A stretch of DNA of 64,000 nt. Origin: an uncultured delta proteobacterium. Its GTDB lineage: Bacteria > Myxococcota_A > Polyangia > Polyangiales > Polyangiaceae. Position 1 is the first letter of the stretch. Each line of letters starts with the position of its first letter. A program made the position numbers and the translations under genes. Of this stretch, positions 35,742-51,807 are shown piece by piece. A model generated the notes under the pieces. That model made no database searches and was not told the DNA's origin. It was given only the letters and a program-made list of their open reading frames with translations. Where the stretch lies: positions 194,431 through 258,430 of the forward strand of contig CAVXQJ010000001.1 in assembly GCA_963763745.1 (NCBI GenBank), read 5' to 3'.

Positions 35742-36543
35742 GTGCCCGAAGGCGACTCGATTCACAAGCTCGCGAACGCGCTCACGCGCGCGATCGTTGG
35801 CAAGACCGTCCGCGCCTTCTCCGCGCACACCGTCATGGATCACGTGGCGCGCACGGTCATCGGCGCGAGAGTCGAGAGCGCGACGGCGCGCGGAAAAAAT
35901 CTGCTCGTCGCGTTCGACGACGGCCGCACGCTCCACATCCACTTGCGCATGCTCGGTCGCGTTCGCATCGTCGCGCCGAAACCCGCACCGCGCCGCATGC
36001 CGCAGCTGTGGATCGAATTCGACGACGTCGCCGTGATGGGTTGGAAGATCCCCGTGCTTCGTCTCTTGCGAAAGGGCGCAGCCGAGCGCGTGCCGGAGAT
36101 CGCATCGCTCGGTCCCGATCTCCTCGCGGAAGACTTCGACGAACGCGATGCGCTCGCGCGTTTTCGCGCGAACCCCGATTGCGAAAATCGGCGAAGCGCT
36201 CATGCTCCAGCGCATCGCCAGTGGCATCGGCAACGTCTACAAATCGGAGGTGCTCTTCATCGAGCGCGTCCATCCGCGCGCGCGGGTTCGCGATCTCGAC
36301 GACGCCGCGATCCTCGGGCTCGTCCGGCGCGCACGCGCGCTCCTACGCATGAACGTCGCGCGCCGCGGTCCACGCGTGACGCGCGGCCTCCTCGGCGCGC
36401 GCCACCACGTCTACGAACGCGCTGGCCGTGCGTGCTCGCGATGCCGCACCGCGATCAGCGTGATCCGGCAGGCGAACCGATCGACGTACTTCTGCGCGAA
36501 GTGCCAGGATGGTGCTGCGAAGAGTGGGCGAGCCGGGACTTGA
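35742..36543 (+). CDS. nei: Fpg/Nei family DNA glycosylase (endonuclease VIII-like); frame disruption at the CCCC run near 36174
   Basis: GTG start then PEGDSIHKL (catalytic Pro2/Glu3); H2TH IASGIGNVYKSEVLF and zinc finger CSRCRT...CAKCQ lie in the +1 frame (track ORF 36148..36543). Confidence 0.7.
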
Positions 36544-36597
36544 ACCCGGAGCCAACGGATTAAGAGTCCGCTGCTCTACCAATTGAGCTACTCGCCC
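36525..36597 (-). tRNA. tRNA-Lys (anticodon CUU)
   Basis: Reverse complement GGGCGAGTAGCTCAATTGGTAGAGCAGCGGACTCTTAATCCGTTGGCTCCGGGTTCAAGTCCCGGCTCGCCCA folds as a cloverleaf: 7-bp acceptor, D-arm, anticodon loop CUCUUAA, T-arm GGGTTCAAGTCCCGG. Confidence 0.85.
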
Positions 36598-36679: not shown

Positions 36680-37390
36680 ATGTCACGACAAGCAGTCGTT
36701 CTCGCCGGCGGGCTCGCGACCCGGATGCGTCCCAAGACGCTCACCGTGCCGAAGGTTCTGCTCGAGGTCGCGGGGCGTCCTTTCGTCGAGTGGCAGCTCG
36801 AATTGCTTGTAAAGTACAACTATCAGCGCGCCGTGATGTGCGTCGCGCATTTGGGCGATCAGGTTCGCGAGCACGTCGGCGATGGCGCGCGCTTCGGCAT
36901 CCGCGTCGAATACTCCGACGAAGGCAAAACGCTCCTCGGAACGGGCGGCGCCCTCCGCCGCGCGCTTCCGCTCCTCGAAGAGACGTTTCTCGTCACCTAC
37001 GGCGACAGCTATTTGCCCTTCGACTACGCCGCGCCGCTCGACGAGCTCCGCGCGCACGACGACTGCGACGGCGTGATGAGCGTCTTCAAGAACGACGGGA
37101 AAATGGGACGCCTCCAACGTCGAGCTCAGTCCGAACGGCGCGTTCGTCGCGCGCTACGAAAAAGGCGCGAAAGACACCGTCTTCGATCACATCGACTACG
37201 GCGCGATCGCGCTTCGCCGCTCTACGGTCGAGGCAATCCCCGAAGATCGCGCATCCGGATTGGACGAGCTGCAAACGCGCCTCGCGCGCGCCCGCCGCTT
37301 GCGAGCCCACGTGGCCCGTGAGAGGTTTTACGAAATCGGCTCGCCCGAAGGGCTCGCTGCGCTAGAAACTCGCTTACAGGAACACCGATG
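36680..37390 (+). CDS. hddC: D-glycero-alpha-D-manno-heptose-1-phosphate guanylyltransferase (HddC-like NTP-transferase); extra A in an AAAA run near 37107
   Basis: AVVLAGGLATRMRP...PKVLLEVAGRPF; C-terminal half continues in the +1 frame (KWDASNVELSPNGAFVARYEKG...RFYEIGSPEGL) ending in ATGA overlap with hddA. Confidence 0.7.
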
Positions 37391-38383
37391 ATCGTCTCCC
37401 GCGCCCCGGTGCGCTTCTCGCTTGGTGGTGGCGGCACGGACTTGCCGACGTATTCGCGCGAGCACGGAGGATTTCTCGTCGCCGCGGCGATCGACAAATA
37501 CGTGACCGTCTGCGTCGCGAAACGCTTCTACAACAACATCCGCCTCGCGTACTCCAAGCTCGAGCTCGTCGACTCGGTCGACGAAATCGAGCACCGCATC
37601 TACCGCGAAGCGCTCCGCTACTCGGGCCTCACGAGCTCGCTCGAGCTCCACAGCGTCGCGGACGTGCCGTCGAACTCGGGCCTCGGCTCGTCGTCGAGCT
37701 TCACCGTCGCGCTGCTCAATGGCCTCCACGCGTACAAGCGCGACTATCTCTCGACCGAGCAGCTCGCGAATGGCGCGTGTCACATCGAGATCGACGTCCT
37801 CAAAGAGCCAATCGGAAAACAGGATCAATACATCGCGGCGTACGGCGGCATCACGGCGCTCACGTTCGACAAGGATGGCACCGTGCACGTCGAGCGTTTG
37901 CCCGTGAGCGAAGCCGTCATCGACGATCTCGAGACGAACCTCATGGTGTTCTATTCGGGCGTCGAGCGCTCGGCGTCTGCCGTCCTCGCGGATCAAGCGA
38001 AGACCGTGAAGGCGAACAAAGACGACGCGGTCGCGCGCATGCATCGCATCAAGGAGATGGGCTACGAGACGAAGAAGCTCCTCCTCGAAGGCAACATCGA
38101 TCACTACGGCGAGCTGATGCACGAGCACTGGATGAACAAGCGCAAGCTCGCATCCAACATGACCGACCCCGTCATCGACGAGCACTACGAAGTCGCGCGC
38201 GAGGCGGGTGCGATCGGCGGCAAGCTCATGGGCGCAGGCGGCGGAGGTTTCTTCCTCTTCTACGTGCGCCCCACCGACAAGCGCCGCGTGCACGACAAGC
38301 TCGTCGCGCGCGGTCTTCGCCCTTTGCGTTTCCGTTTCGATTTCGACGGCGCGCGCATCACCGCAAACTTTCACCGCTCATAG
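37388..38383 (+). CDS. hddA: D-glycero-alpha-D-manno-heptose 7-phosphate kinase (GHMP kinase)
   Basis: MIVSRAPVRFSLGGGGTDLP..., PSNSGLGSSSS GHMP motif; 331 aa. Confidence 0.85.
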   Translation: MIVSRAPVRFSLGGGGTDLPTYSREHGGFLVAAAIDKYVTVCVAKRFYNNIRLAYSKLELVDSVDEIEHRIYREALRYSGLTSSLELHSVADVPSNSGLGSSSSFTVALLNGLHAYKRDYLSTEQLANGACHIEIDVLKEPIGKQDQYIAAYGGITALTFDKDGTVHVERLPVSEAVIDDLETNLMVFYSGVERSASAVLADQAKTVKANKDDAVARMHRIKEMGYETKKLLLEGNIDHYGELMHEHWMNKRKLASNMTDPVIDEHYEVAREAGAIGGKLMGAGGGGFFLFYVRPTDKRRVHDKLVARGLRPLRFRFDFDGARITANFHRS

Positions 38384-38389
38384 GTCTCG

Positions 38390-39001
38390 ATGTCATTCAG
38401 CCAAGATTTTCTCGGAGAGGTTTCGAAAATCGTTTCGTCCGTCGACGCGGGCGAAATCGAAAAGATGGCGCTCGGTCTTGCCGCGGCGCGCGACGGCGGC
38501 GGCCGACTCTTCATCCTCGGCGTCGGCGGCTCGGCGGGTCACGCGAGCCACGCCGTGAACGACTTCCGGAAAATCTGCGGCTTCGAGGCGTACACGCCAA
38601 CCGACAACGTGAGCGAGCTCACCGCGCGCACCAACGACGAAGGCTGGGAGACGACGTTCGTCGAGTGGCTCCGCACGTCGCGCCTGTCGAAGGCCGACGC
38701 GCTCCTCGTGTTCTCCGTCGGCGGCGGCAACAAAGAGAAAAACGTCTCCGTGAACTTGGTGCGCGCACTCGAGCTCGCGAAGGAGCGCGGCGCGAAGGTC
38801 TTCGGCATCGTCGGTCGCGACGGCGGCTACACGAAGCAAGTCGCCGACGCGTGCGTCCTCGTGCCTGTCGTTTCATCCGACCGCATCACGCCCCACACCG
38901 AAGGCTTCTGCGCCGTGCTATGGCACCTGCTCGTCAGCCACCCCAAGCTGCAGGCCGCCAAGACCAAGTGGGAAAGCGTCGAAATAGCGGAGTTGCGGTG
39001 A
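38390..39001 (+). CDS. gmhA: sedoheptulose-7-phosphate isomerase (SIS domain)
   Basis: RLFILGVGGSAGHASHAVNDF..., SIS fold; 203 aa. Confidence 0.85.
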   Translation: MSFSQDFLGEVSKIVSSVDAGEIEKMALGLAAARDGGGRLFILGVGGSAGHASHAVNDFRKICGFEAYTPTDNVSELTARTNDEGWETTFVEWLRTSRLSKADALLVFSVGGGNKEKNVSVNLVRALELAKERGAKVFGIVGRDGGYTKQVADACVLVPVVSSDRITPHTEGFCAVLWHLLVSHPKLQAAKTKWESVEIAELR

Positions 39002-39597
39002 AGCGCGCCGTGGTGCTCGATCGCGACGGCACGCTCGTCGACGTCGTGCGCGACGAAGAGACGGGGGCGATCGTCACCGCGTTCCATCCCGATCAGCTTC
39101 GCGTGCTTCCGGGCGTGATCGACGGGTTGCGCGAGCTCGCGGCCGCCGGCTTCGATCTCGCGATCGCGACGAACCAACCGGGCCCCGCGAAAGGGCAGTA
39201 CTCGCGCGCGTCCGTCGAGAAGACGAACGCCGCGCTCGTCGCGCTCTTCGCCGCGCAAAGCATCACGATCGCGAAGGTTGCAGTCTGCATGCATCATCCG
39301 GACGGCGGCCCCGGCGGCGACGCGTCGCTCGTCGGGCCGTGCGCGTGCCGCAAACCGAAGCCGGGAATGCTCCTCGATCTGCAGCGCGATCTCGGCTTCG
39401 ATTTCAACGCGTCTTGGATGATCGGCGACACGACCTCCGACGTCGACGCCGGTCGCGCCGCGGGCATGCGCACCGGTTTGATCTTCGACGAACGCCGATG
39501 CGAGCTCTGCCCGCTCCGCGGCGGTCCGAAGTGCACGCCCGATCTCCACGCGCGCGACTTCCGCACGCTCGCGCGTCTCGTCTTGGAGAAGTCGTGA
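38998..39597 (+). CDS. gmhB: D,D-heptose 1,7-bisphosphate phosphatase (HAD-IIIA)
   Basis: GTG overlapping the gmhA stop (GTGA); AVVLDRDGTLVD, ATNQPG, MIGDTTSDVDAGRAAG HAD motifs. Confidence 0.8.
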   Translation: MKRAVVLDRDGTLVDVVRDEETGAIVTAFHPDQLRVLPGVIDGLRELAAAGFDLAIATNQPGPAKGQYSRASVEKTNAALVALFAAQSITIAKVAVCMHHPDGGPGGDASLVGPCACRKPKPGMLLDLQRDLGFDFNASWMIGDTTSDVDAGRAAGMRTGLIFDERRCELCPLRGGPKCTPDLHARDFRTLARLVLEKS

Positions 39598-39645
39598 AGC
39601 TCGACGTGGAACGCGTCTGCCGCGTTCTCTTGTGGATCGCGTTGC

Positions 39646-41769
39646 GTGTGGTTCGCGTTCTGCGCGTTCTGGGGCATCGCCGCGATGCCGACCGCGGGGC
39701 ACCTCGGCGCGGGGTCCGCGGTGTCGACGATGATCGCGGAGGCGTCGCTCCAGTGGCACACCGTCTATCCGCTCTGGGATTGGTATCGCGTCGTCGATCC
39801 GTATCCCGCCGCGGTCTACACGCACCATCCATTCGGCGTGTATTGGATGTCCGCGGTGTTCGTGAAGCTCCTCGGGCACCGCGACATCGTGTGCAACTTG
39901 CCCGCGGCGATGATGAGCGCGTCGATGCCTCCGCTGCTCTATCGCATCGGCAAGCGCGCGTGGGGCGAGGTCGCGGGCACGGCGACCGCGCTCGGGTTCG
40001 TGGTGCTCCCGATCACGATTGGCTTCTCGATTTTCCACAACGTCGAAGTCATCACGATGTTCGGCAGCGCGCTCTTCTTCTTCGGTCACCTCGAATACCA
40101 AGCGACGGGCCGCCGCCTTCATCTCGTGACGAGCGTCATCGGCGCGACGATCGGCACCTCGGGCGATTGGCCCGGCTACTTCCTCATCGCGCCGCTCCTC
40201 GCGTGGGCGTTCTTGCGCGCGTTCACGCTCCCGCAGTGGATGACGCCGCACTTGAATGCGTCGCGGTATCACACGTGGTGGGCGTGGTGCGTCGCGGCGA
40301 CGCTCGCGACGTGCGCGCTGTGGATGGGCCTCTATCAACACGTCGATCGCATCGGCGAGTGGCTCGCGCAAGGCAAGTCGCGCGGCGGCGGGAGCGACAT
40401 GCCGCTCGCGGCCGTGCTCGAGTCGCGCAAGAACTGGATCGACTTCTCGTTCACGCCGCTCGCGATCGCCGTCGGAAAGCTCGCAGTTCCCGTCATCATC
40501 GTACGCGTCCTCGTTCGGCGTCGCGACGAAGAGGTTCTCTCGCTCGCGGCGCTGTTCGGCGCGGTGCTCCAGTACGTCGTCTTCAAACGCGGCGCCGACA
40601 TCCACGTCTTCTGGCCGCACTATTTCGGCACGTACTACGCGCTCGCGGTCGGGCAGCTCGTCGCCACGGCGGAAGGCATCGGTCTCTTCGTTGGGCGATT
40701 CATCGCGCCGATGCGCTCGCGCATGATCGCCCTCGTGCTCGCGGGTCTCACGTCGGTCGTCGCGATTTTCATGATCCTGCCCGACGGCGTCCGCTCGCTC
40801 GGCATTTGGCGGAGATCGGGCGGCAAGTACGACGACCGCGGCGCGCTCTGGGACAGCGACGCGGATTTCTTGTTCGTCTTGAAGAAGGTCGCGCGCCCGC
40901 GCGTGCATCGCGGCGAGATGCTCGCGCATCAAGGCCCGTGGGGATGGGAACAAGATTGGGCGCTCGCGGGCCTGTCGGAAGAATCGCAAGACCCGACGCC
41001 GCGCGACCCGTTCTGGTTCGCGCGCGCGCGCGAGCTCGGCGCCGATCACTTGAAGCGACTCGCACCGAAGAACCACTTGCGAATCTACGGCGCCGACGGC
41101 GTCGTCGTCGTCACGCGCGGCGAGCCGAACGCTCCGCTCGATGCGTTCTCTTTGCACGAGCGCGAGCCGAATCCATTCGAGTGGATGTTCACGAACAACA
41201 CCGAGCCCGTGCGCACCCTCGACACGACGCCCGACCCGTTCTTGACGTGGGAGTGGCGCGTCCATCTCGATCAAGCCGCGACGCCGCCGACCGCCGCGCC
41301 GACGACGATCGACGAGCTTCGCATCGCGCACAACGTCGCCGTCGCCGGAGGCAACACGGACGAAGCCGAGAAGCTCCGCGAGCGCCTCGTCGACCGGCTC
41401 GATCGAACGCCCGAATCTCATTTCGACGACGGCTCCGAGCTCATGGGCATCCGCGTCACGCGCGGCGTGAAGCCGACCGTCGAGATCTACGTTCACGCGG
41501 GAGGACCCACCGCGGGCGACACGACCTTCATCGTCCGGTCGAACATCGTCAAAGCAAACCCGCTGAGCCTCGTACCCATCGACGCGACCGAGTGCGATCA
41601 CGCCGTGCCGCCCGCGCTCTCGACGAAGCTCTGGAAGCAAGGCTTCGTCTACGTGTTTCACGCGGCGCTCAATCACCGCATCGGCCTCGAGAAATATTGG
41701 GGCACGCTGGGTCGGCGGGCCGCGTCGCGCGACGGCGCGCCGCACATCGATCTCGTCGAACTGCGGTGA
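39646..41769 (+). CDS. polytopic membrane glycosyltransferase (GT-C fold, PMT/ArnT-like)
   Basis: 707-aa ORF with about 11 predicted TM helices in the N-terminal 450 aa and a soluble C-terminal domain; an alternative GTG at 39594 (GTGA overlap with gmhB) in another frame, VKLDVERVCRVLLWIALRV, could be the true N-terminus if a 1-nt indel is present. Confidence 0.6.
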   Translation: MWFAFCAFWGIAAMPTAGHLGAGSAVSTMIAEASLQWHTVYPLWDWYRVVDPYPAAVYTHHPFGVYWMSAVFVKLLGHRDIVCNLPAAMMSASMPPLLYRIGKRAWGEVAGTATALGFVVLPITIGFSIFHNVEVITMFGSALFFFGHLEYQATGRRLHLVTSVIGATIGTSGDWPGYFLIAPLLAWAFLRAFTLPQWMTPHLNASRYHTWWAWCVAATLATCALWMGLYQHVDRIGEWLAQGKSRGGGSDMPLAAVLESRKNWIDFSFTPLAIAVGKLAVPVIIVRVLVRRRDEEVLSLAALFGAVLQYVVFKRGADIHVFWPHYFGTYYALAVGQLVATAEGIGLFVGRFIAPMRSRMIALVLAGLTSVVAIFMILPDGVRSLGIWRRSGGKYDDRGALWDSDADFLFVLKKVARPRVHRGEMLAHQGPWGWEQDWALAGLSEESQDPTPRDPFWFARARELGADHLKRLAPKNHLRIYGADGVVVVTRGEPNAPLDAFSLHEREPNPFEWMFTNNTEPVRTLDTTPDPFLTWEWRVHLDQAATPPTAAPTTIDELRIAHNVAVAGGNTDEAEKLRERLVDRLDRTPESHFDDGSELMGIRVTRGVKPTVEIYVHAGGPTAGDTTFIVRSNIVKANPLSLVPIDATECDHAVPPALSTKLWKQGFVYVFHAALNHRIGLEKYWGTLGRRAASRDGAPHIDLVELR

Positions 41770-41791
41770 GCCGTCGTACCCTCTCGCGCCG

Positions 41792-42700
41792 ATGACCGTC
41801 GCGTTGGATTTCATCGTCGGCTTGCGCGAGGCGTTCACGTTGCGCCACGCGGAGGAGAGGGCCGTGGCCGACGGCGACGCGCGACGCTCGGAGACGCGTC
41901 GCCTCGCCTCGGCGGCGCGCGCGCGGCGAGCTGCTGCGCGAAGGCTCGCGAGCCCGATCGCCGCGGTCACGCTGCTCCGCGAGGCGCTCGAAATCGCGCT
42001 GTCGCGGCGCGTCAGCCCGAGACGAAGACGCCGGATGGCGCTCGACCGGCTCGCCCGTGACGCGCCGTGACCTCGCCTCGTCGGCCGCCGCTCTACGTGG
42101 ACGAGCTTCCGTTCGCCGCGCGCGGAAGCCCTCCGCGACGCGCTCGACGACGAGCTCACGCGGCGCCTCGGCGCGCTCGACACGCGCAGCGTCGTCGTCG
42201 ATTCGCGCGCTCCGCGCCGGGCGATTCGCGGCCGCGGTCGCGTTCGTGCTCGCGCTCGATCGGCACGGGCGTACGTGCGCGCGAAGCTGCTCCCGCACAA
42301 CGTGGCCGCTCGGAAAACCCGTGCTCACGAACGGGCTCGCTGCGACTCGAACGGCGGCGCGACGTCGTCGATGGACGGACGCGCGGCACGTTCGGCGTCT
42401 ACACGAACGACGCGCCCCGCCCGTTCGTGATGGTCGACCTCGAGAAGTCGCTACGCGCATCACGCGCGATCCGCGTGTTCAACCGCGGCGACGGGTGGTT
42501 CGACGACAGCCTGCCGCTCGCGATCGAAATCTCCGAGGACGACGGTCGCCGTTCCGCGAGCCCGTCGGCGAGCGCACGCAGCACTTCGACATGTGGACCA
42601 TCGATCCTGCCGCCAGGGCACGCGCGCCCGATTCGTCCGCGTCGCGAAGCTCACGCGCGGTTACATCGCGCTCAACGAAATCGAGATCTATTCGCGTGAC
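41792..42700 (+). pseudogene. discoidin (F5/8 type C) domain protein, fragmented over at least 3 frames
   Basis: MTVALDFIVGLREAF start; GTFGVYTNDAPRPFVMVDLEKSLRASRAIRVFNRGDGWFDDSLPLAIEISEDDGR, FREPVGERTQHFDMWTIDP and the terminal LTRGYIALNEIEIYSRD lie in three different frames. Confidence 0.45.
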
Positions 42701-42719
42701 TGAACGCTCCTGCCGCTGC

Positions 42720-45700
42720 GTCGCCCGCCATCGCCCTCGATGTGTTCCGCGTCATCCTCGCGCTCGGCGCGGTCGCGCTCGTCGTCGCGCCCGATCTTCA
42801 GACGATGAACAGGCTCGGCGGTCACGACTGGGACCCGATGGAGGCGCGACCGCTATCCTCGCGATCAAGACGATCAAGCACTACCACCAGTTCCCTTTTT
42901 GGAACCCGTACAGCTGCGGCGGTCACACGTGGTGGGGCGGTCTCGAGAACGGCGTGAACCTCGTCTCGCCGTTCTTCCCCGTCTACATGCTGTCCCGCTC
43001 CCGTCGCGATGCGCATCGAGGTCGTGGGCACCGCGCGCTCGGCGTCATCGGCAGCGTGGATGCTCGCCGGGCGCTTCACGAAGAGCTCCGGCCTCAAGCT
43101 GCTCGTCGCCGTCGCGTTCGCGCTGAACTCGCGGTGGTCGCTCCAGGCGTCCGTCGGGCCACACGTGGCACTTGTATTATGCATGGATTCCGTGGGCGCT
43201 CTTCTTCCTCGATCGCGCGCTCGCGATGGATCCAGCCGACACGCGGCGCGTCGCACGGTGCGCGAGCTCGCGCTCTTCGGGCTCGATGCTCGCGATGATG
43301 GTCTACAACGGCGCGATCTACCCGGTGCCGCAGGCGATCCTGCTCGCGGGCCTCTACGCGATCGCGTGCGCGGTCGCGATGCGCTCGTGGCGTCCCGTCG
43401 GGCTCACGATCGCGCGGTGGGCTCTTCGCGTTCGCGTTCTCCGCGCCGCGCCTCTTCCGATCGTCGACATGCTGCGGCGCTTTCCGCGCCTCGTCGACTC
43501 GACCGAGACGATGGACCTCGCGGCGTTCGTCGGCATCTTCACCGCGAAGACGGGTGACCCGCGACCCGGCGTCGGACCATGGGGCTGGCACGAGTACGGC
43601 GACTACGTCGGGTGGATTCCGTTCGCGTTGATGCTCGTCGCGCCGTTCGTCGCGCGTCGCGCGCGCGAGCGTGGGATGGCGTCGCGGGCGTCGTCGTCGA
43701 TCGTGCTCGGGTTCGGGCGCTTCCACCACTAGGCGCCGTGGGGCTCTCCACGACCACTTGCCGATCTTCGAGTCGCAGCACGTCCCGTCGCGCTGGCTCT
43801 ATCCCGCGGTGCTCGTGTTGCTCGTCGCGCCGCCGGCGCGATCGAGCGCGTGCTCGTGCGGCAGAAGCGTCGCACGCTCCTCGAGATCGCGTTGGTCTTC
43901 GTCGGCGCGTACGTCGCGCTCGACGTCTCGCTCGAATCGCAGCGGCCGCTCGTCGGCGCGCTCGTCGCGTCCGCAGCCGCGCCTCGAGGAGAGCTTCGGC
44001 CCATTCCACCAAGAGAAGGTCGCGCCGCCCACGCTGCGCTACGCCGAGTCCGACTGGGCGCCGCCGTCGTACCCGAGCATGATCGCGAACATCGGCGTGA
44101 TCGAGTGCAGCACGTTCCCCGGTCTGCACAGCTACTACCGCAACAAGGACGGATCGATGCCGGGGCTCGGCGCGAAAGGAAAAGGGCGAGCCGGGGTACC
44201 CCGGAGAAGCGTTCTTCGCGACGGGTGAGGGCTACGCGAGCATCGTGTCGTGGACGCCGAACGCCGTCGTCGTTCACTACAGCGAACGCGCACCCAGGCG
44301 ACATGCTGCATGATGAACCAAAATTGGGATCCGGGTTGGAGCGCCGACGGCCACGCGGCGCTCGATTGGGCGAGCGCGTCGGGACGCGCGTCGAGGCGAG
44401 CGACGGCGAGATGACGTTCCGCTATCGCTCGCGCTTCTTCGTCAGCGGCGTGTTGATTTTCTGGCGACAGTCGTCGGGCTCTTCGTCTTCCGCAAGCACG
44501 ACGCTCAAAAGCAGGCGTAGTCGTGCTCCGCGACGCGCGCCGTTTTCTTGCGAAGCATGCCGAGCGCGTCGTGTTCGGCGGCGTCGTCTCGTTCGTGTTC
44601 TTTTTTCACGCGAAGTACCACGAGCCATGGCGCGACGAAGCGCAAGCTTGGCTCATCGTGCGCGCGGAATCGCTCGGCACGCTGATGCAAGCTTGCGGTT
44701 CGAGTCGCATCCGCCGCTGCCCTATCTGATTCTCGACTCGCTCGCGCGTCTTCACGCTCCGCTCCCGCTCGCGATCCTCGCGGCGATCAACACGGCGTTC
44801 TTGCTCGGAGGGACGAACGCGCTCGTCCGCGCGATGGGCGCGTCGCGTCGCTCGGGCATCGTCTTCACGCTCGTCTGCGCGTGCACGTACATCTACGTCT
44901 ACGAGCTCGGCGTCGTCGCGCGCGCTTATGGCCTCGGCCTCGGCCTGGCGTTTTGGATGATGGCCGCGATGCACCGCGCGCTCGCGAGAGGCGAGCACCG
45001 CGATCGTCGCATCGCGGGATTTACGGGCGCTGCGTCCGCGCTGACGTCCGCGACCGCCGCCGTGTACGTCGCCGCGGCAGTCGTCGTCTTCGGCGTGATG
45101 TGGATCTCGCGCAACCGAATCGCCGATTCGTTCGCGCTCTCTGGCTCGCACCGATCGCGCCCGCCATGTGGCTCGTGAACGACGTCACGAAGCCGCTCCC
45201 CGATCGATGGATTCAATTCGAGCACCTCGAGCTGCCGCAACGCACGTGGGACGTCGACTGGCGCGAGTCGCGCAAGTGGCTGGAAGAAATCTTCGGCGTC
45301 GGCTCATCGAATAGCTGGTGGCCGACGAAGGACATCCCGCCGACGCACTTCGATTGGGCCATCGAAGGTCTTCGCATGCTCGTCGTCGCCGTCGTCGTCG
45401 TGAACGGCGTGCGCTTCGTGCGCGAGTGGCGCACCGCGTTCTTCGTGCCGGTCGCGAGCGCGCTTCAAGTCGCGGGCATCTTCTACGTGATTTTCTACCG
45501 CGGGCTTCGTCCGGACTATCGCCATTGGGCCTTCGTGATGGCGACCGTCCAAGTCGTGCTCGGCGGGCTCTGTTTGGTCGAGGCGCGGAAGAGCCTCTTA
45601 TTGAAGGCGATCCGCCGCGGCGCGATCGTGCTCCTCGCACCGTGGCTCTGGAACCAAGCGACGATCGCGTACTCCAACATCGAGCAAGACGCGTCCTATC

Positions 45701-46071
45701 CCTTTTCGCTCACGAAAGAGTTTGCGAGCTTCCTCCCGCGCGGCGCGCGCGTGATCGTCGATCGCGACGTCTTCGGCACGTCGATCTCGTATTGGCGCCC
45801 CGATGTCGTCACGCGCAGCCCCGACCACCGCGGCCGCTATTTCACCTACGTGCGCTGGGATCGCGCGGAAGCGCATAGCTCGCCGCGCGTGCTCGCGCAC
45901 GACGAGTGCGGAAAGTCCACGACGCGAACCGTCTATCTCTTCGGCAACACGGCAGACGTTCCCACCGAATGCGTGAGCCCACTGGCGCCGCCCTACACGG
46001 GGACGAAGGCGCGTACGGACGAGTACGGGCGCGAATGGGCGGTGAGCTGCAATTGCTTGCTGCGACCGTGA
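42720..46071 (+). pseudogene. YfhO-like large polytopic membrane protein, fragmented over at least 7 frame changes
   Basis: Protein-like hydrophobic segments (AILAIKTIKHYHQFPFWNPYSCGG; YYAWIPWALFFLDRALAMDP; VFTLVCACTYIYVYELGVVARAYGLGLGLAFWMM; final 396-aa intact stretch 44881..46071) alternate between all three forward frames. Confidence 0.45.
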
Positions 46072-46075
46072 TAGA

Positions 46076-47421
46076 GTGCGCGCCTCGAAAATCATGCACG
46101 ACATCGGAATTCTTGGCGGCGGCATCTCGGGTCTCTTCACGGCTTACTTTCTCGGCGGCGACGTAGAGGTCCTCGAGGGTGACGACCGAGTCGGCGGGCT
46201 CGCGCGCTGCTTCGGCGGCGAAGGCTTCCGCTCGGACATCGGCGGTCACATCCTCTTCTCGAAAGACAAAGAAGCGCTCGCCCACGAGCTCGCCGCGCTC
46301 GGCGACAACCGGCGGCAGGGCATTCGCGCGAACAAGATTTTGTACGGGGGCCTGCACGTCAAATATCCGTTCGAGAACGGCATCGACATTCTGCCGAAGG
46401 AAGATCGCGTCGACATCCTTCACTCGTTCATCGACAACCCGCACAAAGCGACGACGCCGACGAACTTTCGCGAGTGGATGTATCACGTGTTCGGCGACGG
46501 CATCACGAACCGGTACCTCCTCCCGTACAATGAAAAGATCTGGAAGACCGACCCTTCGCAGATGAGCCTCGAGTGGGTCGGACGCGTGCCCACAATCGAT
46601 CTGCGCGACTTGATCAAGACCGCGATCGGCATCCAGACCGAGGGCTACACGCACCAACTTTATTTCGACTACCCGAAGACCGGCGGATTCGAGTCGTTGC
46701 CCAAGGCGGTCGCCGCGAAGATCGCGTCGAAGATCACGACCGGCTTTCGCGTGGCGAAGGTGAAGCGCATCGACGGTGGATTCGCCGTGATCAGCACCAC
46801 CGGCGAAGAGCGCCGCTACAAACAGCTCGTCGCGACGATCCCGCTGACGACGCTCTTCGCCGCGCTCGACGACGTGCCGAAAGACGTCAACGACACCGCG
46901 CATGCGCTGCGATTCAACTCGCTGCGCGTCGTGCTCGTCGGCGTGAACGTGACGAACCTCCCCGCGTACACCGCGCTCTACGTCCCCGAGCCGAAGTCGC
47001 TCTACCACCGCGTTTGTTACAACCAAGTCTTCAGCCCCGACATGGTGCCGGCGGGCTGCAACTCGGTGTCGTGCGAGATCACCGTGCCGCCGGGCGGCGA
47101 TCTCGATTCGTGGAGCGACGAGAAGGTTCTCGAGCGCACAATCGACGATTGCATCGCGACCAAGTGATCGACAAATCGACGGTCGTGTACCGCCATGTTC
47201 ATCGCGAGAAGTTCGCCTACGTCGTCTACGACCACGGCTACTCCGATCGCGTGCGCAAGATTCGTGACTTCACCGACTCGCGCGGCATTCACCTCGCGGG
47301 TCGTTTCGCCGAGTACCAATACGTGAACACCGACGCGTGCGTGCGGCGCGCGCTCGATCTCGCGCGGCAGCTCCGCGCGGGCGACATCGCGCCCGAGGCG
47401 CGCATTCCGAAGACGTGGTGA
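46076..47421 (+). CDS. FAD/NAD(P)-binding oxidoreductase (amine-oxidase/UDP-galactopyranose-mutase-like flavoprotein); 1-nt deletion near 47160
   Basis: GILGGGISGL dinucleotide-binding motif; the C-terminal 85 aa (VIDKSTVVYRHVHREKFAYVVYDHGY...HLAGRFAEYQY) continue in the -1 frame after a premature TGA. Confidence 0.65.
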
Positions 47422-47425
47422 GACG

Positions 47426-48853
47426 ATGGCCGAGCGTTACGCAGAAGAAGTGAACTACGAGCTGGCACGCGCGATCGGACGACCGCGCACCGCGCTCGAC
47501 GTGGGTTGTGGTCGTGGTCAGAACGGCGCGCTCGCGAAAGCGAAGGGCGCCAAGGTCACGGGCATCGAAAATTGGCCGGCGTCGGTGGCCGCCGCGCGCG
47601 AGCGCCTCGACGAAGTGATCGACGCGGACATCGAAGCGGACGACGTCGACCTCGGCGCTCGTCGATTCGATCTCATCATCTTCGGAGACGTGCTCGAGCA
47701 CACGCGCGAGCCGCGCCGCGTGCTCGATCATTTCCTTCCATATCTCGAAGACGGCGGCCACGTGATCGTCTCGCTGCCGAACGTCGCCGCGTGGCCCGTT
47801 CGCTTGCAGCTCCTCGCGGGTCGCTTCGAGTACGCGAAGAAGGGCATCCTCGACGAGACGCATCTTCGCTTCTTCACGCGCGAGAGCGCCGTGCGCCTCG
47901 TCGAAGACGCGGGGCTCGAAGTGCTCTCCGTCGGGCTCAACCCGATGCTCGTGCGCGCGGGTCTCGGCGCGATCGAGAAGGTGATGGGCGGCAACCCGAA
48001 CGGCGAGGCAGCAGACGCGTCCGCCATCCTCGATAACCCGCTCTACAAGGCCTATTTGAAGGTCGTTCGACCGATCGAAGGCGAGGTCGCGAAGGTCGCG
48101 CCGAACGCGCTGTCGTTCCAAACGGTGATCGTCGCGCGCAAGCGCCCCGCGCGTCGCAAGCTCTCGCTCACCGTCGGGATGATCTCGATGAACGAAGAGC
48201 GCGCCGTCGCGTCCGTCATCGACGACATCCACGCCGCAGCGCCCGAAGCGGAGATCCTCCTCGTCGACAGCTCGAAGGACAAGACACCGGAGATCGCGAC
48301 GGCGAAAGGCGCGCGCGTCGTGCGGCAGTTCCCGCCCAAGGGCTACGGCCCCGCGATGTTCCGACTTCTCCACGAGGCGAAGACGGACGTCATCATCACG
48401 CTCGACTGCGACGGCACCTACCCGACGGATCGCATCCCGGAGCTGCATCGCATGATCGAAGAGGGCGCGGACCTCGTGAACACGACGCGCACGCGGCATC
48501 GTCCGGACGCGATGCCGTTCGCGAACTTCCTCGCCAATCGCGTCTTCGCGGGAACGGCGCACGCGCTCCACGGGCTCCCGACGACCGACGTCCACAGCGG
48601 CATGCGCGCGTATCGCACGTCGATGCTGCGCGGCATCGACGTCGACCCGAATGGCGCGGCGCTCCCCGTCGATCTCTTCGTCATTCCCGCGCGCCGCGGT
48701 TACCACCTCGTCGAAGTCGAGATCCCGTATTTCGTGCGCATCGGCGACACGACGCTCCACCGCTTCGACAGCACGATTTGGACGTTCAAACGTTTGCTGC
48801 GCGACGCGTCCGTCGGCGGCCGCACGAAGCACGGGCGCTGGGAAAATCGCTGA
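47426..48853 (+). CDS. bifunctional class-I SAM-dependent methyltransferase / family-2 glycosyltransferase fusion
   Basis: N-terminus LDVGCGRGQNG...DLIIFGDVLEH (Methyltransf_11-like); C-terminus LTVGMISMNEE...LLVDSSKDKT...TLDCDGTYP (GT2/DPM1-like); intact 475 aa. Confidence 0.8.
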   Translation: MAERYAEEVNYELARAIGRPRTALDVGCGRGQNGALAKAKGAKVTGIENWPASVAAARERLDEVIDADIEADDVDLGARRFDLIIFGDVLEHTREPRRVLDHFLPYLEDGGHVIVSLPNVAAWPVRLQLLAGRFEYAKKGILDETHLRFFTRESAVRLVEDAGLEVLSVGLNPMLVRAGLGAIEKVMGGNPNGEAADASAILDNPLYKAYLKVVRPIEGEVAKVAPNALSFQTVIVARKRPARRKLSLTVGMISMNEERAVASVIDDIHAAAPEAEILLVDSSKDKTPEIATAKGARVVRQFPPKGYGPAMFRLLHEAKTDVIITLDCDGTYPTDRIPELHRMIEEGADLVNTTRTRHRPDAMPFANFLANRVFAGTAHALHGLPTTDVHSGMRAYRTSMLRGIDVDPNGAALPVDLFVIPARRGYHLVEVEIPYFVRIGDTTLHRFDSTIWTFKRLLRDASVGGRTKHGRWENR

Positions 48854-48856
48854 GCG

Positions 48857-50148
48857 TCACCAGTCGACCCATTGGGTCATGTTGCATTTCCTGAGACCGT
48901 ACGGCCCGACGTCGCCGATGTAATAACAAAGGTCGGCTTCGCGGTAATGCCAGCGGCTCATCGCGAGCCACAAGACCAGCACGACCGGGCGCGTGCGAAG
49001 AAGGTTGCCGAGCGCGAGAAAGAGCGGAAACGCGATGAGCACGTAGCGCGACATGCCGCCGAGATAAATCTGCAAGCTGCCGTAAATGGTCAGCCCGTAG
49101 ACGAGCACGACGAGCGCGTAGAAGAACGCGCGCTCCGATGCCGCGAGGTGCTTGAACGCGAGCCGCGCTCCAAGCAAAAACCAAAGCAGCATGCCGATGG
49201 CCCACACGCTGTCGTGCACCGCGCCGTCGATGGAGTGCATGATCCATTCGGGCTTGGGATCCGATATCTGCGAGATGCTCGGGTCGTGCGAGTAAATCAC
49301 GCCGTGCGCGCGCGTGTAGATCATCGGGTCGTCGAATCGCGACCAGAAGTAGCCCATCACGACGAAGGCGCCCCACGCGGACAGCGGAAAACACGCTGCG
49401 CGCGCGATCCACGCGCCGGCGCCGCGTGGTCTATTTTGCCACGTCGCGACGAGCAAGCCGACCGAGAGCGCGACCGCGCCCGCGACTGCCGTCACGCGCA
49501 TCGCGGTCGCGCATCCCATCAAGAACGCCGCGAGCTCGAAACGCTTGTGCGCGAATGCGACGTAAGACGAGAACGTGAAGAAGAGCGTCAATGGCTCCGT
49601 GGCGACGAACACGAGATAACAAGACGCCGGATACGCGTTGAGCAGGATGAGCGAGAGCCACGCGGTCACGAGACCAAAGCGTTTCGTGATCGCTGGCCCG
49701 TCCAAAAGAAGAACGTGAGGAACGACGCGAGCAGCGACAGGCCCCAGAGCGCCAGGTCCATCGGCATCGCGTGGAGACGCGTGACGAAGCGCCCGAGCAT
49801 CGGATAGCCGGGATAGAACGTGAGCGTGCAGCGCCCGTCGTACATGAGGATGTCCGCGTCGGACATTCGGCCGCGCGGGCACGCCGTGTACCCGCGAAGC
49901 GCGATCGCGATGTAGTGCTCCGCGTCCCAACGCGCGACGGTGAGTCGCTTCGCGTTCGAAGCGTGCGTTTGATGAATCGGATCGACGAACGCCGGTGGAT
50001 CATTCGGCGCGCGATCGAACGGCTCCTGAAATCGCTGGCGCGCCATGTCCTTCGCGTCGAGCACGTGCATCGCGACGAGCAACGCCGCGAAGAAGACGCG
50101 GAACCACGCGCGCGTCAGAAGCCACTCGATCCGATCGCGCATGCTCAT
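48857..50148 (-). CDS. polytopic membrane protein, putative glycosyltransferase (GT87/DUF2029-like); frame disruption in a TTTT run near 49690
   Basis: N-terminal part (track ORF 49666..50148: MSMRDRIEWLLTRAWFRVFFAALL...) and the C-terminal ~290 aa of track ORF 48857..49930 are both hydrophobic and protein-like and join if one T is added. Confidence 0.55.
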
Positions 50149-50161
50149 GCGCTCGCCAGAT

Positions 50162-51133
50162 TCATCCGCCGAAGATTTCGCGCGCGACCTCGGACACGGC
50201 TCGCGCGACCGCTTCGTCCGACGTGTTCTTCACGCGGAAACCGAGGTCGCGAGCTTCTCTCGATTGAGGCGCGAGAACGAAACGTCGCCGGGCCAGCCTT
50301 GCGGCGTCTCGCCGAGAGTCGATGCGCGCCTTCGGGTACGGCGACGCGGCGACGACGAGCTCGGCGATGCGCTTCACCGAGGTCCAGTCGGGCGGCGCGA
50401 GGTTGTAGATGCGAGTTTCCTCGCCCTTGGCGTTCTCCGAACCGAAGAGCACGCCTTCGGCGCAGTCGGTGACGTGCAAGTATGGTTTGACTGCCGGCCG
50501 TTGCCGAGCACGTCGAGGTGGTCGGGGTGCGCCTTGAGCTTCTTGCAGAAGTCGAGGATCGCGCCGTGCGTGCCGCGCGGGCCGACGACGTTGCCGAAGC
50601 GGCAGATGTACCGCTGAAGCCGAAGCACTCGCGTACGCAGCGATGAGCGCCTCGCCCGCGAACTTGCTCGCGCCGTAGAGCGAGATCGGAAGATGTCCGA
50701 GCTCGCATCTCGGCTGCATGCCTCGGACGTGTTGCCGTAGACCGTGCCGCTCGACGAGAAGACGAAGCGCTTGATGCCGTTGAGGCGCGCCGCTTCGAGC
50801 GCGTTGTACGTCGCGATGGTGCCTTGCTCGAGATCGAGTCGCGTGCGCTCGAGACCCCAGCGCGCCTCCGGGTTCGCCGCGAGGTGGAACACGACGTCGT
50901 GGCCCGCCATGGCCTTCGAGCGCGTCGAGATCGAGCGCGTCGCCGACGACGAGCGACGCGCGTCTCGCCTCGAGGTGGCCCGCGACGAACTCGCGCTTGC
51001 CGACCGAGAGGTTGTCGAAAATCGTCACGCCGCCGCGAGCGACGAGCAGATCGACGAGGTGGCTGCCGATGAAGCCCGCGCCGCCGACGATGAATGAACG
51101 CATTGAAAGGCTGTTTAGCGTGTTCGCTGGCAA
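50162..51133 (-). pseudogene. NAD-dependent epimerase/dehydratase (GalE-like) fragmented by at least 4 frame changes
   Basis: MRSFIVGGAGFIGSHLVDLL Rossmann start; AGHDVVFHLAANPEARWG, YGASKFAGEAL (YxxxK) and YRFGNVVGPRGTHGAILDF segments lie in alternating frames (track ORFs 50162..51133 and 50374..50910). Confidence 0.55.
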
Positions 51134-51150
51134 GCTGCTAGAAGACCCGC

Positions 51151-51807
51151 ATGGCTATCTTCATCGACAGCTCCGACCCGAAAGAAATCAAGGACCTCTT
51201 CGGGTGGGGCGTGCTCTCCGGTGTCACGACGAATCCACTCATCATCTCGAAGGAGCGGCCCGACGCCGACCTCGGCGAAATCGTCCGCGAGATCCTGTCG
51301 GTCAGCTGGGGCGACGTCAGCGTCGAGCTCACGACCGAGACGGAAAAAGAAATGCTCGCGGAGGCCTCGCAGTATCACGCGTGGGATCCGCAGCGCATCA
51401 CGATCAAAGTTCCGATGAGCGAGACGGGCTTGCGCGTTCTTCACCAGCTCTCGAAGAAGGGCGTGAAGACGAACGTCACGTGTCTCATGTCGATGAACCA
51501 GGCGTACCTCGCGGCGCTCGCGGGCGCGACGTACGTGAGCATCTTCTCCGGCCGCGTGCGCGACATGGGCTACGACGTGAAGCCCGTGATCGAGTCGACG
51601 CGTCGCGTGCTCGATCGCGAAGGCCTCGCGTCGAAGATCATCGTCGGCTCGATGCGCCACATGATGGACGTGAACGAAGCGCTCGACGCGGGCGCACACG
51701 TCCCGACGATCACGCCGCCGATCCTCCGCAAGATGGTGTGGCACCCGCGCACGATCGAGACGATCAACGAGTTCAACACGGCTTGGAAGAACCGCGGCAA
51801 GAAGTGA
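51151..51807 (+). CDS. transaldolase/fructose-6-phosphate aldolase family (short Tal/Fsa type)
   Basis: MAIFIDSSDPKEIKDLFGWGVLSGVTTNPLIISKE...; 218 aa typical of TalC/Fsa. Confidence 0.85.
   Translation: MAIFIDSSDPKEIKDLFGWGVLSGVTTNPLIISKERPDADLGEIVREILSVSWGDVSVELTTETEKEMLAEASQYHAWDPQRITIKVPMSETGLRVLHQLSKKGVKTNVTCLMSMNQAYLAALAGATYVSIFSGRVRDMGYDVKPVIESTRRVLDREGLASKIIVGSMRHMMDVNEALDAGAHVPTITPPILRKMVWHPRTIETINEFNTAWKNRGKK

Follow-up and report, generated by a model that had tools for sequence, protein, structure and literature searches.

A gene cluster that joins heptose synthesis to membrane glycosylation in an uncultured delta proteobacterium, a soil myxobacterium of the Polyangiaceae (Polyangiales), predicts an undescribed lipid-linked heptose donor. 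The window, which is the whole stretch of DNA analyzed, is 64,000 nt long (assembly GCA_963763745.1, contig CAVXQJ010000001.1, positions 194,431–258,430, forward strand), and the locus occupies window positions 36680–51133 with ∼14 genes (Table 1). Judged from sequence, the chances are about even that it encodes a transmembrane glycosylation system of the Gtr/Arn type that uses a lipid-linked heptose. Systems in which a GT-C enzyme is paired with a polyprenyl-phosphate sugar synthase are a well-known kind of transmembrane glycosylation (PMC11127046). Gene identities at the level of family or fold, operon coupling, and recurrent co-localization are established. The original prediction of a heptose-nucleotide pathway wired to a periplasmic GT-C enzyme, uncharacterized in myxobacteria, holds in its core idea, which is upheld by the recurrence of the genes, a GT-C fold outside curated families, the lack of arn genes in the window, and the GT2 enzyme; the locus is not intact in this sequence.

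Table 1. Genes of the locus and adjoining positions, in window coordinates (frameshift counts were taken against orthologues)
Product	Position	Strand	Remarks
hddC-position sugar-1-phosphate nucleotidyltransferase	36680–37391	+	corrected protein: Pfam NTP_transferase, E 2e-14
hddA heptokinase	37388–38383	+	intact; Pfam GHMP_kinases_N and GHMP_kinases_C
gmhA sedoheptulose-7-phosphate isomerase, SIS domain	38390–39001	+	intact; Pfam SIS_2
gmhB heptose-1,7-bisphosphate 7-phosphatase, HAD-IIIA	38998–39597	+	intact; Pfam HAD families
GT-C1, GT-C-fold membrane glycosyltransferase, uncharacterized Polyangiales family	39594–41769	+	
Membrane-anchored F5/8 type C (discoidin) protein	41792–42703	+	∼9 frameshifts (frameshift-aware alignment to L002 orthologue)
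Second GT-C-fold polytopic protein, distantly YfhO-like	42696–44530	+	∼17 frameshifts
Extra polytopic membrane protein, ∼516 aa	44520–46071	+	at least 2 frameshifts; no family match
FAD flavoprotein, eukaryote-type UDP-galactopyranose mutase-like	46094–47421	+	Pfam Amino_oxidase; one frameshift near 47153
SAM-dependent methyltransferase (residues 1–170) plus DPM1/AglJ/ArnC-like GT2 (residues 250–450)	47426–48853	+	intact
Polytopic membrane protein, ∼430 aa, small Polyangiaceae-only family	48857–50148	−	one frameshift near 49700
SDR, GDP-sugar 4-epimerase subgroup	50162–51103	−	∼7 frameshifts
Transaldolase/fructose-6-phosphate aldolase family enzyme	51151–51807	+	intact; Pfam TAL_FSA, E 1.5e-36
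Small secreted PA-IL-like lectin	51807–52313	+	Pfam PA-IL, 28.1 bits (cut-off 22.5)

The four enzyme types of the complete GDP-heptose route that had been claimed are all encoded. As predicted, hddA, gmhA, and gmhB are intact, and their products find heptokinases, phosphoheptose isomerases, and GmhB or HAD-IIIA proteins as best matches. For the hddA product, HddA is the best NCBIfam match (E 2.6e-50, under its cut-off), and the top four PDB matches are all heptokinases (including 3k85, 2e-51; WcbL, 5e-44; and C. jejuni HddA). Each of the four NCBIfam matches of the gmhA product is a GmhA model, under cut-off, and 12 of 12 PDB matches are phosphoheptose isomerases. The gmhB product matches NCBIfam GmhB (E 1e-33) and exceeds the cut-off of HAD-IIIA. 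The predicted hddC gene was also found, but its uncorrected reading frame is broken by one extra A at 37100–37103 and for this reason has no Pfam match. The restored frame terminates in an ATGA overlap with hddA at 37388, and the protein is 83% identical to its intact orthologue in a related locus, L002. Its best NCBIfam matches are MurU (118 bits), ManC-like (90 bits), and HddC (70 bits), all under cut-offs, and its PDB matches include MurU (1e-24) and Y. pseudotuberculosis HddC (2e-16). Because the nucleotidyltransferase is nearer to MurU than to characterized HddC, GDP is not directly demonstrated as the nucleotide, and its use is something that we infer.

The stops and starts of these genes were said to overlap. 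This is true of the ATGA before hddA and of the GTGA overlaps between gmhA and gmhB at 38998 and between gmhB and GT-C1 at 39594, but hddA and gmhA are separated by 6 nt. Annotations of loci L001 and L002 show this 4-nt overlap too. A transaldolase-type gene that was not part of the original prediction (NCBIfam fsa_talC_mipB, 164 bits) possibly supplies sedoheptulose-7-phosphate.

For GT-C1, the 707-aa reading frame and the GT-C fold stand as described, but the likely start is detached. Translation probably begins at GTG 39594, which overlaps the gmhB stop, and a 1-nt insertion near 39638 severs this start from the frame beginning at 39646. No curated family is matched by GT-C1. The discoidin, YfhO-like, Glf-like flavoprotein, and methyltransferase–GT2 genes named earlier are all present. 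Pfam F5_F8_type_C is found in the L002 orthologue of the discoidin protein (E 1e-10), whose gene overlaps the start of the next one in L002; of the first six syntenic loci, four carry a discoidin gene. The YfhO-like protein is 77% identical to its L002 orthologue after correction, and Pfam YfhO matches 6 of 30 members of its family (best 5e-8). An AF2 model of the orthologue (pLDDT 86.7) matches AftD (2e-6) and ArnT (3e-5) with Foldseek, and both conserved polytopic proteins carry GT-C folds.

The extra polytopic gene, a further addition to the earlier description, is missing from L002 and 99% identical to the copy on a related contig, L087. Its product has no match in Pfam, PDB, or hhalign, and only a motif suggests a likeness to GT-C enzymes. 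The minus-strand polytopic protein had been labeled GT87-like, and every test run (Pfam, PDB, hhalign) failed to support the label. It has no PDB or hhalign match, none of its 17 homologues has a Pfam domain, and a near-identical, intact 428-aa copy (P0259) lies on L087.

The strongest argument was absent from the original prediction: the GT2 enzyme is synthase-like and is the sole Leloir (nucleotide-sugar) transferase in the locus. The best NCBIfam match of the fusion protein is dolichyl-phosphate hexose transferase (E 7e-53, under cut-off), and the best matches of its GT2 domain also include AglJ, PpgS, ArnC, and P. furiosus DPMS. Searches of the PDB give DPMS (5mlz, 2e-9) and ArnC, together with 3cc8 for the methyltransferase (8e-34). 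We regard the GT2 as a candidate polyprenyl-phosphate sugar synthase. It is devoid of transmembrane helices, and its family matches are all below curated cut-offs. This type of GT2 is present in 6 of 6 close loci. As had been claimed for waaC/waaF and wzx/wzy/wza, none of these genes was seen in the window, nor were arn genes; neither the window nor L002 yielded a further Leloir transferase, a phosphoglycosyltransferase, Wzx, Wzy, or WaaL. No flippase candidate (GtrA, SMR, or MATE type) was found in the window, and none is conserved across loci.

Two further proteins could modify the sugar. The flavoprotein is a candidate nucleotide-sugar pyranose/furanose mutase, since its L002 orthologue (89% identical) matches PDB 4dsg (E 4e-29 over residues 6–410). 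The supposed GalE-like epimerase is indeed an SDR epimerase, but it is more exactly GDP-sugar 4-epimerase-like, a subgroup described in PMC12171764. Its L002 orthologue (86% identical, corrected) matches PhGal4E_1 (8rdg, E 1e-68), with 3ehe and 3aw9 as further matches.

A synteny search, which the original prediction had proposed, covered 86 Polyangiales loci, and in 25 of them a GT-C1 homologue has heptose genes no more than 10 kb away. GT-C1 identity in these loci ranges from 82% down to 33%, and gene order is rearranged. Absence from relatives or loss of function had been named as grounds for rejection; the block recurs, although the locus is not intact in the sequence. Heptose-positive loci are enriched, relative to heptose-negative loci, for the GT2 (17/25 versus 12/61, p 3e-5), the SDR (13/25 versus 3/61, p 2e-6), the transaldolase-type gene (13/25 versus 3/61), and the YfhO-like gene (16/25 versus 14/61, p 5e-4). 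Among the 86 loci, no cultured myxobacterium has the heptose-linked version. Many GT-C1/discoidin/YfhO-like triads have no heptose genes within 10 kb, so at the family level the triad is not dedicated to heptose. L001 and L005 hold additional UDP-sugar dehydrogenase and oxidoreductase genes, and therefore other sugars are made nearby.

The route that we infer, including its nucleotide, lipid-linked heptose intermediate, tailoring steps, and acceptor, would begin in the cytoplasm. There, GmhA would convert sedoheptulose-7-phosphate, possibly topped up by the transaldolase-type enzyme, to heptose-7-P, from which HddA would make the alpha-1,7-bisphosphate and GmhB heptose-1-P. The SDR, the flavoprotein, and the methyltransferase domain may then act in strain-dependent tailoring; in C. 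jejuni, both SDRs and pyranose/furanose mutases are established as tailoring enzymes for GDP-heptose (PMC10680097). The DPM1/ArnC-like GT2 would move the sugar onto polyprenyl (undecaprenyl) phosphate, and the lipid-linked heptose would cross the membrane by a protein not among the identified genes. In the periplasm, GT-C1 and the YfhO-like protein, probably with the discoidin protein, would pass heptose to an extracytoplasmic acceptor, and the two remaining polytopic proteins may supply extra steps. We tend to favor a glycan or lipid as the acceptor, rather than a protein.

Counted in favor of a lipid-linked heptose are the four heptose enzyme types with their GTGA coupling, the two GT-C folds with the synthase-like GT2 matches, the lack of another Leloir transferase with the co-localization and gene enrichment, and the subgroup of the SDR with the C. 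jejuni precedent. Counted against it are the missing flippase, the helix-free GT2 with matches below cut-offs, the MurU-nearer nucleotidyltransferase, triads without heptose genes, other sugar genes in L001 and L005, the absence of any polyprenyl-phosphate heptose from the searched literature, and ∼40 frameshifts in nine genes.

Three-component periplasmic systems include GtrA/GtrB/GtrC O-antigen glucosylation, ArnC/ArnEF/ArnT, and GT136 pentofuranose systems (PMC11127046). The locus shares with them a polyprenyl-phosphate synthase-like GT2, GT-C transferases, the lack of Wzx/Wzy or a phosphoglycosyltransferase, and the logic of a lipid-monophosphate sugar donor outside the cytoplasm. It differs in having no flippase gene found, two to four polytopic transferase candidates rather than one, a GT2 that is helix-free and methyltransferase-fused, a GT-C1 outside curated families, and a dedicated heptose pathway; the searched literature describes no lipid-linked donor of heptose. 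Lipoteichoic-acid glycosylation by CsbB/GtcA/YfhO in Bacillus and Listeria (PMC5836110, PMC7389260) likewise combines a GtrB-type GT2 with a YfhO-family GT-C protein. In contrast, our locus has a Gram-negative host, a distant YfhO kinship, no GtcA, and an added GT-C1 and discoidin partner. The sugar of CsbB/GtcA/YfhO systems is GlcNAc, whereas heptose is predicted here. Known GDP-heptose systems have the same four enzyme types, a GHMP-type kinase giving the alpha anomer, and adjoining SDR and pyranose/furanose-mutase-like tailoring candidates. However, cytoplasmic Leloir transferases of a kind not present here use GDP-heptose there, their nucleotidyltransferase is HddC rather than a MurU-nearer enzyme, and the C. 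jejuni dehydratase/reductase set is unlike the 4-epimerase-type SDR.

A different explanation is that two separate modules lie side by side: NDP-heptose would feed conventional cytoplasmic synthesis of LPS, O-antigen, capsule, or exopolysaccharide through Leloir heptosyltransferases encoded elsewhere, and the GT2/GT-C proteins would decorate that polymer, or a different one, with an ordinary hexose (e.g., Und-P-Glc or Und-P-Man). The triads without heptose genes, the hexose transferase as best GT2 family match, and the other sugar-nucleotide genes of L001 and L005 are consistent with this, as is the site, which is fixed on the chromosome beside tRNA-Lys(CTT) and has variable, O-antigen-locus-like content. 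We nevertheless find it doubtful, since no heptosyltransferase and no other Leloir transferase turned up in the window or L002, gmhB and GT-C1 are translationally coupled, and the GT2, SDR, and heptose genes co-vary significantly.

It is rather unlikely that GT-C1 is a PMT/Pgf-type O-glycosyltransferase of secreted or membrane proteins rather than of a glycan or lipid. GT-C1 does match Pfam PMT_2, and its relatives are named ‘glycosyltransferase family 39’ by NCBI. The S. mutans Pgf cluster (pgfS, pgfM1, pgfE, pgfM2; bioRxiv 10.1101/2022.10.10.511621, PMC11092751) also holds a GtrB-type GT2 synthase, a 4-epimerase, and two GT-C-fold proteins, but it comes from an unrelated phylum, and only our locus adds a heptose pathway, a mutase, and lectins. 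Moreover, ArnT is the best structural match of GT-C1, Pfam PMT (PF02366) and the MIR domain are absent from it, and the discoidin partner and PA-IL lectin point to carbohydrate recognition.

Indel frameshifts affect at least 9 of the ∼14 genes (∼40 in total) and are concentrated in those for the discoidin protein, the YfhO-like protein, and the epimerase, and the deposited annotation calls truncated products (P0242, 270 aa; P0258, 158 aa). A decaying remnant with real pseudogenes would look like this, but we judge it unlikely. The damage is confined to indels, with in-frame stops nearly absent; third-position GC bias is kept; corrected identity to L002 (77–89%) is not below that of intact neighbors; and there are intact orthologues in Illumina assemblies. 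Indels also occur in a phosphodiesterase gene, in the housekeeping gene for Fpg and, by the coding-frame trace alone, in a BamA-like gene. The hot spots match mosaic blocks in which another assembly of this population diverges, and L087 breaks other genes while keeping the minus-strand polytopic gene intact. Because housekeeping genes are also struck and hot spots coincide with divergent blocks, assembly noise is likelier than gene decay. The related records are assemblies of the long-read type. Most probably, the frameshifts arose as consensus errors when a long-read metagenome was assembled, in stretches that differ between co-occurring strains.

That GT-C1 acts as a standard ArnT-type modifier of lipid A is highly improbable, as the original prediction held: it lies outside curated families with only 10–14% identity to ArnT and no NCBIfam ArnT match, its PDB profile search gives STT3A alone (E 0.003), arnA, arnB, arnD, arnE, and arnF are absent from the window, and the linked pathway makes heptose, not Ara4N. 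The predicted PA-IL-like lectin gene is present, and locus L006 holds a homologue of it.

The heptose and glycosylation genes of the window form a cluster that is real and conserved. Since the high GC content (65%) produces many spurious ORFs, genes were called from third-position GC and from the syntenic loci of five relatives (L001, L002, L003, L005 and L006). The GT-C membrane glycosyltransferase (hereafter GT-C1) of L001 is 82% identical to the window copy, and that of L002, a k141 short-read assembly that is the best reference, is 68% identical. Relatives of this protein carry the name Polyangiaceae. A Pfam scan of raw ORFs gave no match for the hddC, discoidin and YfhO-like genes, which led to the discovery of frameshifts. 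A frameshift-aware dynamic-programming aligner was therefore written to compare L002 and L001 proteins with the window DNA, and it supplied the frameshift counts.

Features of the glycosylation locus and its surroundings, in window positions, with the state of the reading frame
Feature	Position	Strand	Frameshifts	Basis
BamA/TamA-like gene (outside locus)	~18428		suggested	coding-frame trace only
Lower-GC island	23764-28333			
Phosphodiesterase gene (outside locus)	34346-35735		1	aligner
Fpg gene (outside locus)	35742-36460		2	aligner
tRNA-Lys(CTT)	36524-36597	-		
Nucleotidyltransferase gene in hddC position	36680-37391		surplus A in run 37100-37103	
hddA	37388-38383		intact	
gmhA	38390-39001		intact	
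gmhB	38998-39597		intact	
GT-C1	39594-41769		1-nt insertion near 39638	comparison with L001
Discoidin gene	41792-42700		9	aligner
YfhO-like gene	42696-44527		17	aligner
Extra polytopic gene, absent from the original prediction	~44520-46071		at least 2	
Flavoprotein gene	46094-47421		1, at 47153	aligner
Methyltransferase-GT2 fusion	47426-48853			
Minus-strand polytopic gene	48857-50148	-	1	
Epimerase (SDR) gene	51103-50168	-	7	aligner
Transaldolase/FSA-type gene	51151-51807			
PA-IL-like lectin gene	51807-52313			
BacA/UppP gene	55575-56384	+		
ECF sigma factor gene (outside locus)	~58036-58127		suggested	coding-frame trace
Transposase-like ORF	60386-61007	-		

The hddA product is assigned as a GHMP-family heptose-7-phosphate 1-kinase. 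Its best PDB matches are heptokinases (3k85, 2e-51; WcbL, 5e-44; C. jejuni HddA, 1e-33), and its best NCBIfam model is HddA (E 3e-50), at 172 bits against a cut-off of 600. For gmhA, assigned as a sedoheptulose-7-phosphate isomerase, all 12 PDB matches are phosphoheptose isomerases, and all four GmhA models of NCBIfam match below their cut-offs. The gmhB product is assigned as a heptose-1,7-bisphosphate 7-phosphatase; HAD-IIIA and histidinol-phosphatase domain models score above their cut-offs, and GmhB is the best match at 116 bits, below its NCBIfam cut-off of 178. Once the surplus A is taken out, the hddC-position gene encodes a 236-aa NTP_transferase, 83% identical to its L002 orthologue. 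As judged by sequence comparison, the nearest characterised relatives of this protein are MurU-type uridylyltransferases (118 bits; PDB, 1e-24), with HddC behind (70 bits; PDB 6jq8, 2e-16), so that the nucleotide has to be inferred from context. The complete hddC-hddA-gmhA-gmhB route to GDP-heptose in the original prediction thus holds for its last three genes, which are intact and match heptose enzymes best, and is weakened at hddC, which is frameshifted and closer to MurU. The overlapping stops and starts were likewise found at all but one junction: ATGA joins the corrected hddC to hddA, GTGA joins gmhA to gmhB, and a second GTGA joins gmhB to GTG 39594, the counterpart of the annotated GT-C start in L001, whereas 6 nt lie between hddA and gmhA.

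The frameshifts in Fpg and the phosphodiesterase, together with those that the coding-frame trace suggests in the BamA/TamA-like and ECF sigma factor genes, indicate that indels occur throughout the assembly and not in the locus alone. The damage is almost purely of this kind: a single stop occurs across all stitched translations, the third-position GC bias is kept, and the translations are 77-89% identical to L002, no lower than intact neighbours. L087, a related contig from another sample, aligns to window positions 41575-52335 as a sharp-edged mosaic. The two sequences are essentially identical in 44500-47800 and 49000-50200, whereas they are 13-25% divergent, with many gaps, in 41500-44500, 47800-49000 and 50200-52300. 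The frameshift hot spots of the window fall within these divergent blocks, and L087 has frameshifts of its own in the GT2 (7), PA-IL (5) and YfhO-like (23) genes, with the minus-strand polytopic gene intact. Alignment gaps against L087 coincide with 30 of the 34 frameshift sites in the window, a coincidence that the high local gap density renders nondiscriminating. Related records resemble long-read assemblies (e.g., 'contig_..._np1212'). We consider it likely that the frameshifts are noise in hypervariable segments, arising from collapsed haplotypes or long-read consensus. Real decay is the distinctly less probable account. The locus is indeed not intact in the window sequence, and it is conserved in relatives. 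If the frameshifts are noise, they caution that indels packed densely into a long-read metagenome assembly can be mistaken for pseudogenisation precisely at hypervariable loci. The mosaic itself hints either at allelic cassettes or recombination inside the glycan locus or at a consensus built from mixed strains.

A scan with one genome per species recovered 165 GT-C1 relatives, and all 80 loci kept from it belong to records named Polyangiales, Myxococcales, Myxococcota or, less specifically, delta-/Proteobacteria. The predicted synteny of heptose genes and GT-C recurs: heptose genes are found within 10 kb of a GT-C1 homologue in 25 of 86 loci, in rearranged gene order and orientation and with GT-C1 identities ranging from 82% down to 33%. 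Several other genes of the cluster accompany the heptose genes. The DPM1-like GT2 is encoded in 17 of the 25 heptose-positive loci versus 12 of the 61 others (p 3e-5), the 4-epimerase-like SDR in 13 versus 3 (p 2e-6), and the YfhO-like protein in 16 versus 14 (p 5e-4); the transaldolase-type gene is present in 13 versus 3. When all ORFs of the 25 loci were clustered, neither a conserved flippase-like protein nor a Leloir heptosyltransferase emerged. Similarly, no small multi-TM ORF besides the known genes was found at 30-60 kb that could be a dedicated flippase of the GtrA, SMR or MATE type. The loci of cultured Sorangium, Polyangium, Chondromyces and Minicystis lack heptose genes, and no cultured host of a heptose-linked locus was found.

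A tRNA-Lys(CTT) gene lies within ~100 nt of the hddC start in all five loci in which hddC was mapped (the window, L001, L002, L005 and L006), even where the remaining cluster is rearranged, and L003, L007, L008 and L014 each contain one copy. This recurrence indicates that the locus occupies a fixed chromosomal site with a conserved border and variable content. The triad of GT-C1, discoidin and YfhO-like genes also exists without heptose genes within 10 kb (L011, L013, L018, L019, L021, L023, L024, L034 and others), and several genomes hold at least two GT-C1 paralogues. The GT-C1/discoidin/YfhO-like machinery appears to be modular, with an exchangeable sugar supply.

GT-C1 has the GT-C architecture, a polytopic N-terminal module followed by a periplasmic C-terminal domain. 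Compared with L001, the insertion in the window cuts the first 15 codons (from GTG 39594) off an intact 707-aa ORF that begins at 39646. Assignment to PMT/GT39 is not supported: only PMT_2 matches (27.5 bits, cut-off 26.1), and the window protein has neither PF02366 nor MIR. PF02366 was found in one distant relative (protein P0118). A standard ArnT (GT83) with a lipid A modification operon had been named as the finding that would overturn the proposal; this reading of the protein and of the locus was rejected, as there is no NCBIfam match, identity is 10-14%, and the window has no arn genes. A Wzx/Wzy O-antigen or capsule locus was rejected as well.

The YfhO-like protein belongs to a family of >300 proteins. 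All those that are named are called 'hypothetical protein', and the named sources are without exception Polyangiaceae, Myxococcota or soil metagenome. Pfam YfhO (PF09586) matches six of 30 family members, at best with 5e-8; the L002 orthologue has no match and the L001 orthologue a weak precomputed one. A structural model of the L002-type orthologue (pLDDT 86.7) matches the folds of AftD (2e-6) and ArnT (3e-5), and on this basis the protein is predicted to be the second GT-C fold of the locus. In the discoidin orthologue, a cytoplasmic N-terminal region is followed by a single transmembrane helix and then by an F5/8 type C domain in the periplasm. The discoidin and YfhO-like genes of L002 overlap.

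Neither PDB profile searches nor hhalign against the GT-C1 profile gave a match for the YfhO-like family, for the minus-strand polytopic family or for the extra polytopic protein, so that kinship of these three proteins to GT-C1 cannot be demonstrated by sequence. The minus-strand and extra polytopic proteins fall into no family detectable by Pfam, PDB profiles or hhalign. The minus-strand protein had been described as GT87-like, an assignment that was rejected for want of support: it has no Pfam match at E values up to 0.1, and none of its 17 homologues has a Pfam domain. A PimE-like identity was also rejected, since the PDB profile search, which included PimE (9dm5), returned nothing at E values up to 10. 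Another polytopic protein of ~650 aa (L002, 18257-20218; L005, 13900-15819), which has no Pfam match, is kept in eight of the 25 heptose-positive loci and is not present in the window.

The methyltransferase-GT2 fusion is a 475-aa protein with sequence characteristics of polyprenyl-phosphate sugar synthases of the DPM1/GtrB/ArnC type. Among the NCBIfam matches of its GT2 domain, all below curated cut-offs, dolichyl-phosphate hexose transferase ranks first (7e-53), ahead of AglJ, PpgS and ArnC, and PDB matches include P. furiosus dolichol-phosphate mannose synthase (2e-9) and ArnC. The domain is plausibly a candidate polyprenyl-phosphate sugar synthase. The flavoprotein, through its L002 orthologue, has full-length likeness to eukaryote-type UDP-galactopyranose mutases (T. 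cruzi, 4dsg, 4e-29 across residues 6-410; A. fumigatus, 2e-27), and the Pfam GLF match is merely 0.0078. The SDR matches PhGal4E_1 (E 1e-68), A. fulgidus 3ehe (1e-68) and P. calidifontis 3aw9 (3e-54), with a UDP-glucose 4-epimerase next (2e-27). Its nearest solved relatives are archaeal GDP-sugar 4-epimerases, which place it, as a putative enzyme of this kind, in the GDP-sugar 4-epimerase subgroup of Gal4E (PMC12171764). The predicted PA-IL-like (LecA-like) lectin beyond the locus was confirmed by Pfam PF07828 (28.1 bits, gathering cut-off 22.5; E 2e-6; residues 50-164).

The DPM1/ArnC-like GT2 is the sole predicted nucleotide-sugar-consuming enzyme found in the window or L002, and translational coupling ties the operon to the GT-C gene. 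The most economical explanation is therefore a Gtr/Arn-type pathway. An NDP-heptose would be made in the cytoplasm and optionally epimerised, ring-contracted or methylated. The sugar would then be transferred to polyprenyl phosphate and flipped, and in the periplasm GT-C1 and the YfhO-like enzyme would use the lipid-linked sugar. A precedent for such tailoring exists in C. jejuni, where GDP-heptose is modified by SDRs and pyranose/furanose mutases (PMC10680097). Family and fold identities, gene coupling and co-occurrence have direct support; the nucleotide, the lipid-linked heptose, its tailoring and the acceptor are inferred.

Our full proposal, which we regard as possible but short of probable, is that the lipid-linked donor in Polyangiaceae is a polyprenyl-phosphate heptose, a donor class not described so far, whose sugar may be 4-epimerised, furanosidic or O-methylated. 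A soluble DPM1-like GT2 would make this donor, and a hitherto unclassified GT-C family would consume it. The partners of that GT-C would be the YfhO-like GT-C and the discoidin protein as a membrane-anchored subunit, all encoded at a hypervariable tRNA-Lys-flanked site analogous to an O-antigen locus. The cluster plausibly predicts new donor chemistry. As an observation, the GDP-heptose pathway wired to periplasmic GT-C glycosylation is upheld in its conservation and not in its intactness here, and the interpretation gains partial support, its central biochemistry being conjectural. A multi-component transmembrane glycosylation architecture is shared with CsbB/GtcA/YfhO, with streptococcal Pgf (GT2, epimerase and two GT-C proteins) and with Gtr, Arn and pentofuranose GT136 (PMC11127046). 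However, the locus differs from these systems in its dedicated heptose supply, its soluble methyltransferase-fused synthase, its GT-C without a curated family, the number of its polytopic proteins and the lack of a recognisable flippase. Searches of the literature on lipid-linked heptose, on heptose with GT-C and on heptose in myxobacteria found no polyprenyl-phosphate heptose and no such myxobacterial locus.

The sugars known from lipid-monophosphate donors are hexoses, amino sugars, uronic acids and pentofuranoses. If the proposal is true, a heptose donor would extend this chemistry and at least one new GT-C family would be added, for which a clear in vitro assay exists (GT2 with NDP-heptose and undecaprenyl phosphate). 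The cluster also suggests that abundant, mostly uncultured soil predators and degraders have a surface glycan that varies between strains, with a bearing on phage and kin recognition.

Three further features of the window were recorded. At 3.3 kb downstream of the locus, past genes for a beta-CASP ribonuclease and a Nudix protein, is the gene for undecaprenyl-diphosphatase BacA/UppP (Pfam E 1e-71). The L005 cluster likewise has a BacA gene nearby, and the enzyme may be a mere housekeeping neighbour. The lower-GC island (~59%) lacks the usual third-position GC bias and encodes a response-regulator-like protein (minus strand) and three secreted proteins, one of them large and the other two small and Cys-rich. 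Rfam gave no match in 23-30 kb, so the island is not an rRNA operon. Finally, the minus-strand ORF near the end of the window, which has the motif HVHLIVE, may encode a REP-associated or IS200-like tyrosine transposase.
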